A stretch of 35,486 nucleotides of DNA from a virus (lineage: Duplodnaviria > Heunggongvirae > Uroviricota > Caudoviricetes): positions 1 through 35,486 of IMG/VR virus record IMGVR_UViG_2724679238_000015; one strand, written 5' to 3'. Below, piece by piece: positions 1-9,606 of this stretch (positions within the stretch are counted from its first letter, which is position 1; each line of letters starts with the position of its first letter). A program made the position numbers and the translations under genes. The notes under the pieces were generated by a model. That model did no database searches and was not told where the DNA came from. It saw only the letters and a program-made list of their open reading frames with translations.

Positions 1-1002
1 TTACCCTCTATTGTCAAAAGGGTTCAATTCAACTGCAGCCTCTAAATGACCTGGAGCAAAATGCGCATAACGCATAGTCATTTTTATATCGCTATGCCCC
101 AGTATTTTTTGCAACACAAGAATATTTCCTCCCCGCATCATAAAATGACTGGCAAACGTGTGACGTAGCACATGAGTTAATTGCCCATCAGGAAGCTCGA
201 TCTTCGCTCTCTTAATTGCAGCGTCAAAAGCCTCATAACATGGTGAAAATAACGCTCCTCGTTTTTTAGGAAGCATAGCCTGCAATTGAGGTGAAATCGG
301 TACAGTGCGGTTCTTCTTTCCTTTAGTTTTAACAAATGTGATTCGACCGGGCAGCACTTGAGATTGCTTTAATCCTTCAGCTTCACTCCACCGAGCACCA
401 GTCGCAAGCCCAATACGGACAACAACCCCCAAATCTTTATTCCGTGACTCATCACACGCAATCAGAAGGCGTTCAATCTCATCTACATACAGAAACGCCA
501 ATTCCTTTTCTTCCTCACGAAACTTGCGAATGCCAGTCAGGGGGTTTTCACCAGACCACTCCCCAAGGCGCTTCAGTTCGGCAAAAACAGCATGTAGATA
601 TGACTGCTCGCGATTAACGGTTGCTTCACTAAGTTTTTTCTTCCCCTTGGGATTCCATTCTCCTGATAACCTCCTTTCCCGATAAGTAGCAAACATATTT
701 TTGTCAAACTGAGAAGCAAATGGATCTCCCAGCCTAGAACAAATAGACTCAAGTTTGACTTTGCGCTCTGCACCAGAGGACAAGGTTTTACCGTACATCT
801 CAAACCAACGAGCAACCAACTCAGAAAGACGAGGACCAGAACCATCTTGAAACTCGTCTCCAACTCTACTATTCATTAAACGGCGCTCATAAGAGAGCGC
901 CTCACTTTTTGTCGCAAACTGTTTACGAATACGTTTTCCCGATGCCCCGTAAGGATAACATTCGCAAAGCCATTTACCTGATGGAATCTTACGAACCGAC
1001 AT
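1..1002 (-). CDS. int: tyrosine integrase, phage 186/P2 family
   Basis: 333 aa. N-terminus MSVRKIPSGKW...GKRIRKQFATKSEA and C-terminus LTHVLRHTFASHFMMRGGNILVLQKILGHSDIKMTMRYAHFAP closely match my memory of phage 186 Int (catalytic R..H..R..Y region). Its stop codon is the first 3 bases of the window. Confidence 0.9.
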   Translation of the reverse strand: MSVRKIPSGKWLCECYPYGASGKRIRKQFATKSEALSYERRLMNSRVGDEFQDGSGPRLSELVARWFEMYGKTLSSGAERKVKLESICSRLGDPFASQFDKNMFATYRERRLSGEWNPKGKKKLSEATVNREQSYLHAVFAELKRLGEWSGENPLTGIRKFREEEKELAFLYVDEIERLLIACDESRNKDLGVVVRIGLATGARWSEAEGLKQSQVLPGRITFVKTKGKKNRTVPISPQLQAMLPKKRGALFSPCYEAFDAAIKRAKIELPDGQLTHVLRHTFASHFMMRGGNILVLQKILGHSDIKMTMRYAHFAPGHLEAAVELNPFDNRG

Positions 1003-1007
1003 TTTAG

Positions 1008-1355
1008 TTACTTATCACATAAATCAAATGCAGCCTTAGTGACATCTCCCAGATTCTTTTTTAACCCTGGGGCGGCATCATTATCCAGCCAAAATGGATT
1101 ATTGTTATCTAACGGTAACGCACCAAATGTTTTACCTTTTATTCGAGCCAAACCTGTAAGCGCATATAACTTATTATCGTCAAAATTCATCACATAAGGA
1201 TTACCATCTAGACACTGTAACTGAACCTCATCAGTATTAAATGGCCATACCCCATTGAAACTCTCACGTTCAATATTTTTAAAAGGCATTGCGACGGCAG
1301 AAAAAGAAAACATAGATAAAAAAGTAACTAATAGTTGAACCTTTTTTACTTTCAT
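1008..1355 (-). CDS. small secreted protein of unknown function (signal peptide), cargo in the repressor-int operon
   Basis: 115 aa. N-terminal MKVKKVQLLVTFLSMFSFSAVA looks like a Sec signal peptide. GAGGT RBS. Only 5 bp from the int start, so probably co-transcribed. Confidence 0.6.
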   Translation of the reverse strand: MKVKKVQLLVTFLSMFSFSAVAMPFKNIERESFNGVWPFNTDEVQLQCLDGNPYVMNFDDNKLYALTGLARIKGKTFGALPLDNNNPFWLDNDAAPGLKKNLGDVTKAAFDLCDK

Positions 1356-1384
1356 ACCATTACCTCAATTTAGCTCAAGTAAGA

Positions 1385-2035
1385 TTACAAATTAAAAAAC
1401 ATCCTAGAAATGGCACCACCTACCAAACCCCCTACGCAGATAAAGAATATTATTTCTTTTGGATAAAGTCGGATTAATTCTGAAGCACGAAGTCGGACTT
1501 CTGGTAAGGTCGAATTCTCTGTGTTGCTTGATACCGATTGTTGCTCTAACCACGACAATGCAGACTGCAACTGAGAACGAGTAAGATCGTTTAAACGTCC
1601 TGTACCGAAATTGATATGGCAATACCGCAGAAGTTTTTGTCGAAGTCCACAGTCTTCACTGTTACGTAGTAATAAACTTACAAGAGCCTTACAGGCATCA
1701 TGATCTTTACATCGCTCAAGCATTGCATGCAGAAAACTCTCCGCTGTTTTATATTGATTTACTGTCATATCATCAATACCAGCTACACCAATCTCCGCAT
1801 GTACTTTTTGCCAAATAATAAACGCTTCAGTATTGCTAGCTTCTGCAATAGCAGCAACCAAGCTATTTAGCTCCTTACGCTGAGCCTTAAGCAAAGGGCG
1901 ATCGTCATCATCATTATTCGAAGGGATTGCGATATTGACGGTATGAGAACCATCATATCGCCCTATCTGAATATTCTTTTCGTGAAAATCACGCCCAGCA
2001 ACGCGATTGTTTGAACCGTTTGAGTTGACGGCCAT
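1385..2035 (-). CDS. C-terminally membrane-anchored protein of unknown function, cargo in the repressor-int operon
   Basis: 216 aa. GGGAGG RBS 5 nt upstream. Single hydrophobic segment at the extreme C-terminus (IIFFICVGGLVGGAISRMFF). N-terminus carries the motif GSNNRVAGRDFHEKN also present at the C-terminus of the upstream HTH protein. Confidence 0.6.
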   Translation of the reverse strand: MAVNSNGSNNRVAGRDFHEKNIQIGRYDGSHTVNIAIPSNNDDDDRPLLKAQRKELNSLVAAIAEASNTEAFIIWQKVHAEIGVAGIDDMTVNQYKTAESFLHAMLERCKDHDACKALVSLLLRNSEDCGLRQKLLRYCHINFGTGRLNDLTRSQLQSALSWLEQQSVSSNTENSTLPEVRLRASELIRLYPKEIIFFICVGGLVGGAISRMFFNL

Positions 2036-2050
2036 GTCACCTCCCTACTA

Positions 2051-2455
2051 TCACCTACCCTTAGTTTCGTTATAGTCACGCCCAGCGATACGGTTATTAC
2101 CGCCAGAAATATTTAACTCACGTCCTGATGGCTGAGTTTCCTTTTCACTGGCCGCACCTTTTAAAGCCCCGATCACCGCGTTTTTCACATCTAACGAAGC
2201 TGCTCGAAAGCGAGTAATCAACTCCTGCTCATCATCGTTATAAGTTTCAGGTGAGTGAATTCCCAACACAACATACTGAACATCAAGGCCAAAACGAGAC
2301 AGCGCTGCCAAATACGCAGCATCAGGAAAGCTATCTCCTTTCTCATATCTAAGCTGAGTTAGCTTTTTGACTCCACCAATGTCGCTCATAGCAACTTGAC
2401 TAAGTCCCAATCTTTCCCTTTCCTCACGCAACCTCTGACCAATATCATTTTTCAT
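2051..2455 (-). CDS. XRE-family helix-turn-helix repressor, candidate immunity repressor
   Basis: 134 aa. N-terminal QRLREERERLGLSQVAMSDIGGVKKLTQLRYEKG is a typical XRE HTH. Divergent from the early operon across a 75-bp control region, the position of cI in 186-like phages. Confidence 0.7.
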   Translation of the reverse strand: MKNDIGQRLREERERLGLSQVAMSDIGGVKKLTQLRYEKGDSFPDAAYLAALSRFGLDVQYVVLGIHSPETYNDDEQELITRFRAASLDVKNAVIGALKGAASEKETQPSGRELNISGGNNRIAGRDYNETKGR

Positions 2456-2470
2456 ACAAAAACCTTGACA

Positions 2471-2488
2471 GGTATCTTTTTTGATACC
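2471..2488. promoter_or_regulatory. 18-bp palindrome GGTATC-N6-GATACC in the divergent control region; candidate operator next to a TTGACA -35-like hexamer (2465..2470)
   Basis: Perfect 6-bp inverted arms with a TTTTTT spacer, between the repressor start (2455) and the first early gene (2531). Seen directly in the sequence; function inferred. Confidence 0.3.
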
Positions 2489-2530
2489 AAAATGATTTCA
2501 CGAGCTATTAGATGATCACAATATATCACT

Positions 2531-2737
2531 ATGAAACAAGTTCTTCACGATACCAGATCACGCATTCCGCGTAACACCGCCACAGGTCCAAGACTGGCAC
2601 TTCGGCTGTCCCTCGAGGAGCGAGCCGTCATTGATGAAATGGCAGCTAAAGAACAACGCTCATCCTCTAACATGGCGCGCATGATCTTCCTTCGCGGCCT
2701 AGAGCTAACCCAGAAAGAACAAAACAAATCTTCCTGA
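2531..2737 (+). CDS. small ribbon-helix-helix-like DNA-binding protein, first gene of the early operon (Cro/Apl-like role inferred)
   Basis: 68 aa. RLALRLSLEERAVIDEMAAKEQRSSSNMARMIFLRG fits the beta-strand/helix pattern of Arc/CopG/MetJ-type proteins. No clear RBS, so the start is uncertain. Confidence 0.5.
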   Translation: MKQVLHDTRSRIPRNTATGPRLALRLSLEERAVIDEMAAKEQRSSSNMARMIFLRGLELTQKEQNKSS

Positions 2738-2753
2738 TCAGGAGGCTAATGGG

Positions 2754-2957
2754 ATGTCAGGTATAACCATCAATATCAATGTGAATGCCCCCTATGTATC
2801 CCTGCAGAAATATGCAGAGATAACAGGTATCCCTCTTAATACATGCAAAAAGATGTTGGCTGACGGTCGAATTATTATCCGACCCAAACGCGCCAAAATG
2901 GAAAAGCCTGAAGTAAACCTTGTGGCGATGTTAAAAGACGCTTTGGCTAACAGCTAA
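2754..2957 (+). CDS. small HTH protein, candidate excisionase/Cox-like regulator
   Basis: 67 aa. GGAGG RBS 8 nt upstream. YVSLQKYAEITGIPLNTCKKMLADGRI resembles a winged-helix excisionase-type DNA-binding motif. Confidence 0.5.
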   Translation: MSGITININVNAPYVSLQKYAEITGIPLNTCKKMLADGRIIIRPKRAKMEKPEVNLVAMLKDALANS

Positions 2958-2978
2958 AACAATGAACAGAGCATCATC

Positions 2979-3329
2979 ATGAAAAAAAACACTAATATTC
3001 CATACTCCAAATTTCGTAATGGCGTAGAACGCCACGCTAACCGTTTCGCTATCAGTACATCACGTAGCAACACTCGCTACAGCCTGAGCGAAACACACGC
3101 TACACCTGATGGCCATCCCGTAAAACAAATTGGTGAACACACCTGGCTGATTGAGAAAGCTGGAATCGTGGTTCACAGATGCCAACGCAACCCATTTACC
3201 GGAAACCGCATTTTTGCTCTGAGCAACGGCGACAATCAGTTTGGACAGGATTTCACGTTGTACGAAGCTCTGCGCACGGTTGATCGTCTGCTACGCGGAC
3301 AGAATTTCATTAAACAGGCTGATTTATAA
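2979..3329 (+). CDS. hypothetical early protein
   Basis: 116-aa ORF in the early operon; no recognisable motif. Confidence 0.45.
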   Translation: MKKNTNIPYSKFRNGVERHANRFAISTSRSNTRYSLSETHATPDGHPVKQIGEHTWLIEKAGIVVHRCQRNPFTGNRIFALSNGDNQFGQDFTLYEALRTVDRLLRGQNFIKQADL

Positions 3330-7923: not shown

Positions 7924-8883
7924 ATGAAAATTTGCATCGACGACGGCTCCACCAACATCAAGCTGGCATGGACTGAGAACGGCGAACGCCGCAACGCCAT
8001 CAGCCCGAACAGCTTCAAGTCGGAATGGTCTGCGCCGTTCGGTGGCACGCAGCCCGCGAACTACATGCTTGATGGCGTGCGCTATGGTTTTGATCCGGTC
8101 AGCGATCGCTTTGTCCAGACGACCGACACGCAATACCAGTACAGCGATGTGAATGTCATTGCCATTCATCACGCGCTGGTCAAATCAGGTATCACACCAC
8201 AGGAAGTGGACGTGGTTGTCACTCTGCCACTGAGCGAGTATTTCGATACAAACGCACAGCCGGACATGGCCAACATCAACCGCAAAAAAGCGAATGTCCT
8301 GCGCCCTGTGGAGTACCAGAACGGTGAAGCATTCACTATCCGCAACGTGCGGGTTATGCCTGAATCCATTCCGGCTGGCTTTAAGGCACTGGCTGACATG
8401 AGTCCGTTTGAATCCCTGCTGATTGTGGATTTAGGCGGAACAACGCTGGATGTGGCAAAGGTTCAGGGGCAACTGGCAGGCATCAGCCAGGTGTTTTGCG
8501 ATCCACACGTAGGCGTTTCCCTGATGGCTGATGCCGTGCTGTCGGTGCTGGCCACTAACGGTATGCGTACCAGTCACCACATCGCCAATACCATTATTGA
8601 GCACCGTCACGATGAAGCCTGGCTACGCCAGCACATTCACAATGACGCGCATTACAACAGCCTGATAGCGGTTATTCGTGAAAAGGAGGAGACACTGAAA
8701 CAACGCGTGATCCGCGCACTCGCGGGCTTTTCGGGTTACGGGCGGGTGCTGGTTGTCGGTGGAGGAGCGGAGATTGTGGCACCCGCAGTCCGTGAAGTCT
8801 ATGGAGTCAATGCGAATTTCATCACAGACGGGGTGCCACAGTTTGCTCTGGTTAACGGTCTGTACGCTATGGATAAGGAGTAA
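7924..8883 (+). CDS. parM: ParM/StbA-family actin-like segregation ATPase
   Basis: 319 aa. MKICIDDGSTNIKL..ISPNSFK..YSDVNVIAIHHALVKSGITPQEVDVVVTLPLSEY matches plasmid R1 ParM as I recall it (MLVFIDDGSTNIKLQW...ISPNSFK...QYSDVNVVAVHHALLTSG). AAGGA RBS. Confidence 0.8.
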   Translation: MKICIDDGSTNIKLAWTENGERRNAISPNSFKSEWSAPFGGTQPANYMLDGVRYGFDPVSDRFVQTTDTQYQYSDVNVIAIHHALVKSGITPQEVDVVVTLPLSEYFDTNAQPDMANINRKKANVLRPVEYQNGEAFTIRNVRVMPESIPAGFKALADMSPFESLLIVDLGGTTLDVAKVQGQLAGISQVFCDPHVGVSLMADAVLSVLATNGMRTSHHIANTIIEHRHDEAWLRQHIHNDAHYNSLIAVIREKEETLKQRVIRALAGFSGYGRVLVVGGGAEIVAPAVREVYGVNANFITDGVPQFALVNGLYAMDKE

Positions 8884-8889
8884 CCCTCC

Positions 8890-9201
8890 ATGGCGACATT
8901 AACCAGAAGAATAAGTTTCTATCTGAAGCCAGCCGCCGTCAAGAACGAAGGCAAAGCATGCGCCTGGCTGGACAGCCTTACACCAGAAGCCCGCAAAAGC
9001 GGCCAACGCGTGGCTTTTCTGCCCGGGCTGGCACTTCTGAAAATGAATCCGGCAGAGGCTTACCGACTGGCTGCATGGGCTGATGATGAGGCGTTATCAG
9101 TGACACAAACCAGGGCAGAACGCCACATGTTACAGCCAGCGCCCACCGCACAGATAACCAGTCAGCTAGCCGGAAATATCCGGGCGTTATTTCCCGAATA
9201 A
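8890..9201 (+). CDS. parR: ParR-like centromere-binding protein
   Basis: 103 aa, AAGGAG RBS, directly after parM. RISFYLKP, WLDSLTPEARKSGQRVAFLPGLAL and NIRALFPE resemble R1 ParR (IAFKLNP, TLDSIPQGERSRLNRAALTAGLAL, LRSLFPKE). Confidence 0.65.
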   Translation: MATLTRRISFYLKPAAVKNEGKACAWLDSLTPEARKSGQRVAFLPGLALLKMNPAEAYRLAAWADDEALSVTQTRAERHMLQPAPTAQITSQLAGNIRALFPE

Positions 9202-9264: not shown

Positions 9265-9606
9265 ATGCAACACATTGACAGAGAAAAAGCGCAGCGACTG
9301 ATTGAGCGGATGGAAGCGCTGGCGAAAGAAGAAAATGTCAACATCCAAAAAATAGCAGAATGTGGCCAGATAGTTCTTCGTCGTGAAAAAGACATCAAGC
9401 AACTGATGTCTGGCGAAACCAGCAAAACACGGATTCCAGGCGAGAAAACGATTTATTGTAGCTTCTGCAATAAATCCCAGTACGAAGTCACAAAGGTGAT
9501 TGCCGGACCGTCTGTTTACATCTGCAATGAGTGCGTGGATTTGTGCAATGAAATTATCAGGAGAGAAGCGACTGACCATGAAGAAGCGCGGAGATGCAAC
9601 GATTAA
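9265..9606 (+). CDS. small protein with a C-terminal ClpX-type C4 zinc-finger domain
   Basis: 113 aa. [38 protein letters not shown] is near-identical in pattern to the ClpX N-terminal zinc-binding domain ([34 protein letters not shown]). Preceded by a charged, probably helical N-terminal half; no AAA+ domain. Confidence 0.7.

Follow-up and report, generated by a model that had tools for sequence, protein, structure and literature searches.

Organization of the repressor-to-integrase region

Our study concerns the region between the candidate immunity repressor gene and the integrase gene (int) of a P2-like prophage, carried on 35,486 nucleotides of viral DNA (Duplodnaviria; Heunggongvirae; Uroviricota; Caudoviricetes; IMG/VR record IMGVR_UViG_2724679238_000015, positions 1 to 35,486); we refer to this whole stretch as the window. 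Two genes, orf216 and orf115, lie between the repressor and int. The product of the first opens with a peptide that mirrors the C-terminal tail of the repressor, and the match holds inside each repressor/partner pair as the peptide itself changes between lineages; the second sits in a slot that is filled by unrelated genes in related prophages. From these observations we propose a model in which orf216 would act as a membrane partner of the repressor and orf115 as a separate accessory gene.

Across 2.8 kb the window is 99% identical to Escherichia phage 520873 (genus Xuanwuvirus, family Peduoviridae). An open reading frame (ORF) scan and reading of the sequence place four genes on the minus strand. 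The candidate immunity repressor (2051..2455) has 134 residues with an Xre-type helix-turn-helix (HTH) domain and matches Pfam HTH_31/HTH_3 and the PHROG repressor families; it is followed by orf216 (1385..2035), orf115 (1008..1355) and int (1..1002), the last encoding a tyrosine integrase of 333 residues (Pfam Int_N and Phage_integrase) and forming the final gene of the leftward operon. A first, sequence-only reading of this DNA had placed both genes between the repressor and int, on one strand and with gaps of 15 and 5 bp; the scan agrees, the gaps being 15 bp between the repressor and orf216, 5 bp between orf115 and int, and a further 29 bp between orf216 and orf115. The 15-nt spacer after the TGA stop codon of the repressor (2051-2053) reads TAG TAG GGA GGT GAC (2036..2050, minus strand) and contains the Shine-Dalgarno sequence of orf216 (GGAGG, 2040-2044, 4 nt upstream of the ATG), and that of orf115 is the GAGGT within gaggtaatggtATG. 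No terminator-like site was found on the minus strand of positions 1-3000. Given the short gaps, the ribosome-binding site of each gene and the lack of a terminator, a single leftward transcript from the repressor promoter to int, and with it expression of orf216 and orf115 in the lysogen, is plausible.

Both are genuine genes rather than chance ORFs, with homologs at 57-98% identity in many genera for orf216 and at 58-97% for orf115. The 1048-bp region that spans them is present in 519 of the 5426 complete E. coli genomes (~10%), and both are unannotated in the deposited phage record, NC_049344.1 (our loci L001/L032; 2039-3081). This is the sole GenBank phage genome with these genes, and its int is split in two; orf216 aligns to it in four pieces, and the record seems to hold frameshifts.

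A terminal peptide shared by the repressor and orf216

The repressor is built from its N-terminal Xre-type HTH domain, a conserved helix (...APLAVKAAALAALTAG) and then a tail of variable type with a basic end; its homologs hold the repressor position in both P2-like and Mu-like phages. The tail motif, which is conserved in all partnered repressors, covers residues 115-134 in the window (LNISGGNNRIAGRDYNETKGR; 2054..2113, minus strand) and runs into a basic end. The last ~20 residues of the repressor are mirrored by the first ~20 of orf216, such that the tail NISGGNNRIAGRDYNE matches the N-terminus NSNGSNNRVAGRDFHE. The orf216 protein starts MAVNSNGSNNRVAGRDFHEKNIQI, and 10/16 aligned residues are identical to the repressor tail, six of these ten being encoded by different codons; the nucleotide identity of the two motifs is 29/48. 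The motif region of orf216 extends over residues 4-37 (1925..2026, minus strand), where NSNGSNNRVAGRDFHEKNIQI is followed by a degenerate second copy, GRYDGSHTVNIAI; this second GRD(F/V/L) pseudo-repeat is clear in the relatives L070, L084, L087, L097 and L022. The match between tail and N-terminus is present in all enterobacterial pairs.

Two other origins of the shared motif were considered and rejected. The TGA stop codon and two in-frame TAG codons between the genes mean that the repressor and orf216 are not joined by read-through, and the out-of-frame spacing in other genera argues against a frameshift fusion. Recent duplication or gene conversion is discounted by the nucleotide identity and by codon usage, since identical residues are written with different codons at 70 of 133 positions (53%) over 17 pairs; these differing codons point instead to selection at the level of the protein.

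A cluster of Lys/Arg residues closes almost every repressor tail (NENKK, KKNK, RRRKTK, GKKKK, GKGKKRK; 2054-2068 in the window). It may bind the membrane or DNA, act as an aggregation gatekeeper or form a ClpX signal like that of MuA.

The matched peptide changes with the lineage

To cover further tail types, loci were looked up for other tails and IMG/VR was scanned with a profile of the repressor. In Mu-like transposable prophages, too, the gene after the repressor encodes a membrane protein, and the N-terminus of this protein matches the tail of that lineage. Examples of further types come from Pectobacterium (tail QIFNGDISGQFAGNQIIN, partner N-terminus QEFNGTAQGQFSSRDIIN; a Flk_N protein of 194 residues) and from Gilliamella, with one pair that has a Flk_N partner of the same length (tail GEGQIAGGNIYTT, partner AEQIAGRDIYNIT) and another whose partner, of 152 residues, has two transmembrane segments and no Flk_N domain (tail QIINGSVNGQISAGNIYN, partner QNFNDRVEQVAGENIIN). 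The same holds for locus L102 (tail QVFHGAVSGGVAARDIIN, partner QEFQGNVDGGVAGRDIVN, 269 residues) and locus L105 (tail QVFHGSVGQVVEGSITN, partner QDFHGDVGQVAGEKIVN, 160 residues). Isolated phages carry the match as well: in Pseudomonas phage B3 the tail of ORF18, ISVTGDGNRTAGRDFHE, faces IEVTGSNNIVAGRDFIE in ORF20, and tail and partner are likewise matched in BcepMu (gp17 and gp18, the latter annotated 'membrane protein') and KS10 (gp13 and gp12). The motif thus differs across lineages and still matches inside each pair. Two repressor homologs lack the tail, and no such partner was found downstream of either.

With 14 non-redundant tail types, the local alignment scores of tails with their own partners sum to 560, against 342±35 (maximum 514) when the pairing is shuffled; 0/100,000 shuffles reach the own-partner score. 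The own partner ranks first for 7 of the 14 types.

The cores of the partners vary more widely than their beginnings. Flk_N proteins, a 150-residue form with two transmembrane segments, a CxxC form and forms of 260-340 residues all carry the matching N-terminal peptide, in proteins of 118-341 residues; all of those scored by hydropathy have one or two predicted transmembrane segments. Partners other than orf216 were screened with the Flk_N profile and by hydropathy only. The long partners (260-340 residues: L099, L102, L103, L104, L112; BcepMu gp18, L120 2863-3645) share a conserved domain of ~55 residues after the transmembrane segment, with two Cys (C.F.G..Y..G.....N..APD..C); this domain is presumably periplasmic and could serve as a sensor.

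orf216 is a predicted tail-anchored protein with a Flk_N core

The sole hydrophobic segment of orf216 lies at its extreme C-terminus (Kyte-Doolittle window 194-212), where an AlphaFold2 (AF2) model places a helix at residues 192-214 (1394..1462, minus strand); a 17-sequence alignment shows an invariant G202-x3-G206 within it. The single C-terminal membrane anchor proposed in the sequence-only reading is thus borne out by both hydropathy and the model. Since this lone segment is at the C-terminus and no N-terminal signal is present, orf216 is predicted to be a tail-anchored inner-membrane protein whose soluble part faces the cytoplasm. The AF2 model, built with 17 sequences, has a mean predicted local distance difference test (pLDDT) score of 72; the helical core at residues 46-171 (1523..1900, minus strand) reaches 80-88, and residues 1-40 fall below 50 and are predicted to be disordered in the monomer, as would be expected of an interaction or templating peptide.

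The core belongs to the Flk_N family. NCBIfam Flk (NF007987 / PRK10715) matches orf216 at 59.2 bits (E 4.1e-16) over residues 36-169 only, the Flk_N domain PF27202 is precomputed on all close homologs, and the protein falls in phrog_5825. A BLASTP comparison with residues 26-146 of K-12 Flk gives 28% identity (E 2e-10; E. coli K-12 flk, L026 3951-4946). Weaker matches link the core to the C-terminal modules of antirepressors (phrog_245, E 0.0042; phrog_2127, E 0.045) and to an ORF6C protein in BFVD (E 2.6e-3), the last with a TM-score of only 0.26-0.30. A sequence search of the PDB gave chance matches only (E >1), the Pfam and NCBIfam scans found no nucleoside triphosphatase (NTPase) or sensor domain, and Pfam matches to ELYS and zf-P11 lie below threshold and were dismissed as noise. 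Searched with a Flk_N profile, 1.84 billion representative proteins yielded only 137 clusters. Among the matches listed, nearly every full-length phage-type Flk_N member opens with a tail-like motif, and a few carry the motif ~30-45 residues in; chromosomal Flk proteins start MQPxSGP, without such a motif.

Flk blocks premature secretion of late substrates (FlgM) by the flagellar export apparatus, and orf216 might be thought to act in the same way on the flagellar type III export gate, altering the motility of the lysogen. The two proteins are indeed homologous, and Flk (Fluke/RflH) of Salmonella and E. coli has the same design, with the Flk_N helical domain, one C-terminal membrane anchor and a cytoplasmic orientation (PMC13344023). 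However, the 59 bits scored by orf216 are far from the equivalog cut-off of 353, and the protein has one Flk_N copy in 216 residues where Flk has two in tandem in ~331-333. The N-termini differ too, that of Flk being Pro/Gly-rich and free of any motif matching a repressor and that of orf216 being MAVNSNGSNNRVAGRDF. The gene is prophage-encoded beside a repressor, some partners lack Flk_N yet keep the motif, and the module is common in Klebsiella, which is normally non-flagellate. We consider a flagellar role for orf216 very unlikely indeed. The comparison instead suggests that chromosomal Flk may be a duplicated phage-type Flk_N protein that has shed the repressor-matching motif, and so of prophage origin.

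A constant partner and a variable slot before int

The synteny of the region was compared in 16 loci from 12+ enterobacterial genera (Klebsiella, Serratia, Citrobacter, other E. coli, Rosenbergiella, Mixta, Izhakiella, Enterobacter, Kosakonia, Buttiauxella, Hafnia and others). All sampled enterobacterial loci share the order repressor, Flk_N protein (8-25 bp later), variable gene and int; the Flk_N gene directly follows the repressor in all 16, and only the next gene differs. In all tail-bearing loci that we examined, P2-like and Mu-like, the partner gene likewise comes immediately after the repressor. The slot before int has at least seven unrelated alternative occupants: a YebY protein, a DUF8087 protein, a BRCT-containing protein of 288 residues (plus a weak WYL match), membrane proteins of 242-244 residues, a pair formed by a Zn-ribbon protein and an XhlA-like tail-anchored protein, a 291-residue protein like the defense candidate PDC-S48 (E 1.4e-8), or nothing. 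It apparently constitutes a small, undescribed accessory hotspot of P2-like prophages; the varied genes can be seen in other prophages at L002 6647-7513, L018 4663-5538, L025 4609-5257 and L122 3357-4132. In Candidatus Symbiopectobacterium (L021, 3605-6010) the Flk_N gene and int are both frameshifted and the repressor tail reads AGNNF instead of AGRD[FY]; here the module is decaying together.

Because the slot before int holds so many alternatives, orf115 is cargo; orf216 belongs with the repressor and is not. The sequence-only reading had taken both genes for cargo, which is right for orf115 alone, and had seen in them a functional pair of a membrane-anchored and a secreted protein, which we reject, since orf216 stays beside the repressor as its neighbor is replaced by unrelated genes.

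By inspection, orf115 starts with a Sec signal peptide, in keeping with the earlier proposal and with the periplasmic family to which it belongs. The predicted signal covers residues 1-23 (1287..1355, minus strand), with a basic n-region, a hydrophobic core of 17 residues and an A-x-A motif, cleavage being placed after AVA (MKVKKVQLLVTFLSMFSFSAVA|MPF); no lipobox Cys was seen in the signal region. The protein matches the YebY/DUF2511 family PF10709 at 25.7 bits (gathering cut-off 21; E 1.6e-5; profile positions 3-87 of 87), K-12 YebY at 35% identity (E 3e-8) and the sequence of the YebY crystal structure (PDB 7n0j) at E 0.009. W37, C48 and C113 are invariant across 13 sequences of the orf115 clade, and W37 and C113 align with the same residues of YebY. 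YebY has a Cys48-Cys113 disulfide, and the family is exported to the periplasm (PMC8689200). In its signal peptide, Trp37 and the positions of Cys48-Cys113, orf115 thus resembles both YebY (E. coli yobA-yebZ-yebY) and MlbQ, a lantibiotic self-resistance protein; unlike YebY, it comes from a cargo slot of a prophage and is not encoded with CopC/CopD homologs (the AZY operon, a linkage that is not universal in the family). Phage-type YebY proteins fall into 17 clusters that make up a small clade of their own, and every context examined places them in the slot from the Flk_N gene to int. We propose that orf115 is an independent accessory gene that shares the transcript of the repressor and occupies a swappable slot; its product would bind a ligand or an incoming molecule in the periplasm, and such a binding or protective role, with protection or lysogenic conversion as the outcome, is the most likely one.

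Superinfection exclusion or lysogenic conversion had been suggested for the two genes together, as envelope cargo that is expressed in the lysogen and works independently of the repressor. The operon shared with the repressor and free of a terminator, the one membrane and one periplasmic product, and the position before int, an accessory and defense hotspot, would all suit such a function, and bstA of prophage BTP1 sets a precedent for a defense gene co-transcribed with the repressor (PMC7067206). Yet the constancy of one gene and turnover of the other leave no pair, the soluble domain of orf216 is cytoplasmic, and the motif that it shares with the repressor would go unexplained; nor does PADLOC-DB v2 lend support to exclusion, as its models gave 0 families matched by orf216 or orf115 at E up to 1. 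For the two genes jointly this account is unlikely. For orf115 alone it is reasonable, the variable slot being what one expects of a moron or conversion gene, and only its extension to orf216, cytoplasmic and mirroring the repressor tail, falls away. Lambda rexAB and the defense genes between repressor and integrase of mycobacteriophages are transcribed in the lysogen with the repressor. Like these and bstA (PMC7067206), both genes of the window lie downstream of a repressor and are probably co-transcribed with it; such repressor-linked genes are, however, swappable morons without any sequence link to the repressor, a description that fits the slot of orf115 and not orf216.

A proposed model for repressor control at the inner membrane

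The reading we favor, to which we give about an even chance of being correct, is that orf216 is a dedicated membrane partner of the repressor acting through direct peptide pairing, with orf115 an independent, swappable periplasmic accessory. The N-terminus of orf216, a disordered peptide of ~20-35 residues, and the repressor tail that it mirrors would pair directly by zippering of beta-strands, and the pairing might extend to cross-beta (amyloid-like) stacking. Through this contact part of the repressor pool would be tethered, sequestered or switched in conformation by orf216 at the inner membrane, which would tune the maintenance of lysogeny or its induction; the Flk_N core, with its ORF6C/antirepressor-like character, may be the regulatory or docking part. 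The lineage-specific mirroring of the repressor C-terminus and the cytoplasmic position of the soluble part point to the repressor, and not an incoming phage, as the target of orf216. Of the two directions, signaling from the envelope towards the repressor seems the more likely, because the longer partners span the membrane and carry a Cys-containing domain that is presumably periplasmic. The sequence comparisons suggest direct pairing, with tethering or switching of the repressor by orf216, as the most economical explanation.

Antirepressors such as P22 Ant, 186 Tum and those of Gifsy, together with membrane proteins that sequester regulators, offer one comparison: orf216 is likewise a small phage-encoded protein, proposed to act on the repressor of its own phage, and its core is weakly ORF6C/Ant-like. 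The phage antirepressors known to us are soluble and expressed only on induction, from LexA-controlled or lytic promoters. orf216 is instead predicted to be membrane-anchored and co-transcribed with the repressor, and its recognition, if any, would run through a mirrored terminal peptide.

A closer likeness in logic is offered by the amyloid-signaling pairs (HET-S/NWD2 of fungi, BASS1-10 of bacteria and Bab/Agp, or BASS11, of E. coli), in which a short G/N/Q-rich peptide at the C-terminus of one protein recurs at the N-terminus of its neighbor; there, as here, the motif is variable between lineages, matched within the pair and disordered in the monomer. Matching within pairs and variation between lineages are the signature by which amyloid-signaling motifs are defined (Dyrka et al.). 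It may be, then, that the mirrored peptide is a true self-templating motif of amyloid-like kind, with orf216 converting the repressor tail to, or holding it in, an aggregated state and so exerting prion-like control of the lysis-lysogeny switch at the inner membrane; we put this forward tentatively, as a rather unlikely but consequential form of the model. The differences from the known pairs are substantial. The C-terminal motif belongs to an Xre-type DNA-binding repressor and not to a HeLo, Bell or Babybell cell-death domain; the N-terminal motif belongs to a small membrane protein and not to a nucleotide-binding leucine-rich repeat (NLR)/STAND or tetratricopeptide-repeat sensor; the motif is more charged; and one would expect the pair to regulate genes and not to kill the cell.

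The same comparison could be carried further, to an abortive infection system of the Bab/Agp or HET-S/NWD2 kind, in which sensing and templating of the motif would make orf216 oligomerize through its GxxxG helix, damage the membrane and kill the infected cell. Matched terminal motifs in neighboring genes are a hallmark of amyloid-signaling cell-death systems, the anchor of orf216 does contain an invariant G-x3-G, and one such system, the Bab/Agp pair, acts in an E. coli prophage (bioRxiv 10.1101/2024.11.07.622273). Here, however, it is not a Bell/HeLo pore domain that bears the C-terminal motif but the phage's sole candidate immunity repressor; the protein with the N-terminal motif lacks any NTPase or NLR part; in many partners the membrane segment is just a tail anchor of 16-20 residues; and the PADLOC search was empty. 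Such a cell-death function seems to us improbable, a shade more so than the next alternative.

In that alternative a third factor, such as a protease (ClpXP, FtsH or Lon) or an antirepressor of the phage, would recognize both proteins by the shared peptide, and the two would compete for it or be degraded together instead of binding one another. The basic clusters that end the repressor tails (KK, KKNK, RRRKTK, GKKKK) speak for this: they are similar to the MuA-type C-terminal ClpX signal, and control of the Mu repressor operates through a ClpX determinant at the C-terminus; the window also encodes a ClpX zinc-finger protein (9265-9606), and a relative carries a Tum-like 'Derepression' gene. 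Yet conserved host proteases would leave the lineage-specific co-variation of the motif unexplained, and the partner carries its copy at the N-terminus, a position from which a C-terminal degron could not work. As a full account it is quite unlikely; a third factor could nevertheless act as a step downstream of pairing between repressor and orf216.

Several points weigh against pairing as we envisage it. With its R, D, E and K residues the motif carries a fair amount of charge, more than is typical of amyloid cores. For two of the 14 tail types the own partner ranks only 9th and 12th, and since the loci are related by descent the permutation test overstates their independence. Within the commonest motif type, where the motif is nearly invariant, co-variation at the level of positions is weak, with only a Y/F position standing out (p ~0.006, uncorrected for phylogeny). 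Among the partners, no transmembrane segment was found in KS10 gp12, and the partner in L113/L116 seems truncated. Co-transcription with the repressor would be unusual for an antagonist, so that orf216 could instead be a partner that stabilizes repression. As to orf115, its AF2 model (mean pLDDT 55.8) is too poor to confirm the fold of YebY and MlbQ, a four-stranded sheet with helices.

Other features of the window

The repressor gene is divergent from the early operon, which opens with an Arc-like and then a Cox-like gene. An early (lytic) promoter-like site, TTGACA-17-CAAAAT, lies on the plus strand (2465..2493), and within it a perfect inverted repeat, GGTATC-N6-GATACC (2471-2488), is a candidate operator for the repressor; both were assigned by match to consensus only. 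The first gene of the operon, an ORF of 68 residues (2531-2737, plus strand), is Arc-like according to the annotation of the reference phage, gave no Pfam match and represents an additional small regulator relative to P2.

After the replication gene, a ParM-like actin ATPase (7924-8883, plus strand; so annotated in a near-identical phage record) and a Plasmid_stab_B (StbB-like) gene (8890-9201, plus strand; E 3e-23) form a plasmid-type partition module inside an integrating P2-like phage. A 113-residue ORF (9265-9606, plus strand) has a C4 zinc finger of the ClpX type as its C-terminal part (PF06689, E 9.4e-18). This phage copy of the ClpX N-domain could interfere with the recognition of substrates or adaptors by ClpX, and may be relevant to the basic ends of the repressor tails.

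Implications for lysogeny control

The control of lysogeny in P2-like and Mu-like phages is today explained by repressors, counter-repressors of the Cox/Ner type, soluble antirepressors and proteolysis. In the literature on amyloid signaling, Flk, BcepMu gp17/gp18 and membrane-anchored antirepressors we found no publication on the pairing of a repressor with a membrane partner, and our comparisons suggest that a module of these two proteins with mirrored terminal peptides is widespread and undescribed. For annotation, this means that genes adjacent to a repressor are not automatically cargo; here the cargo slot begins one gene later.

If our model is correct, the module would add a new layer of control, co-inherited and co-varying across two unrelated phage lifestyles in gamma- and beta-proteobacteria, and could link the state of the envelope to the maintenance or induction of the prophage. 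The logic of matched terminal motifs would then extend beyond cell-death systems of the NLR type. Should the motif prove to be truly self-templating, many P2-like and Mu-like phages, B3 and BcepMu among them, would have a lysis-lysogeny switch governed by prion-like templating, and this would be the first amyloid-signaling pair to have transcriptional derepression, not cell death, as its output. The presence of the module in ~10% of complete E. coli genomes and in the cultivable phages B3, BcepMu and KS10 makes these proposals directly testable.

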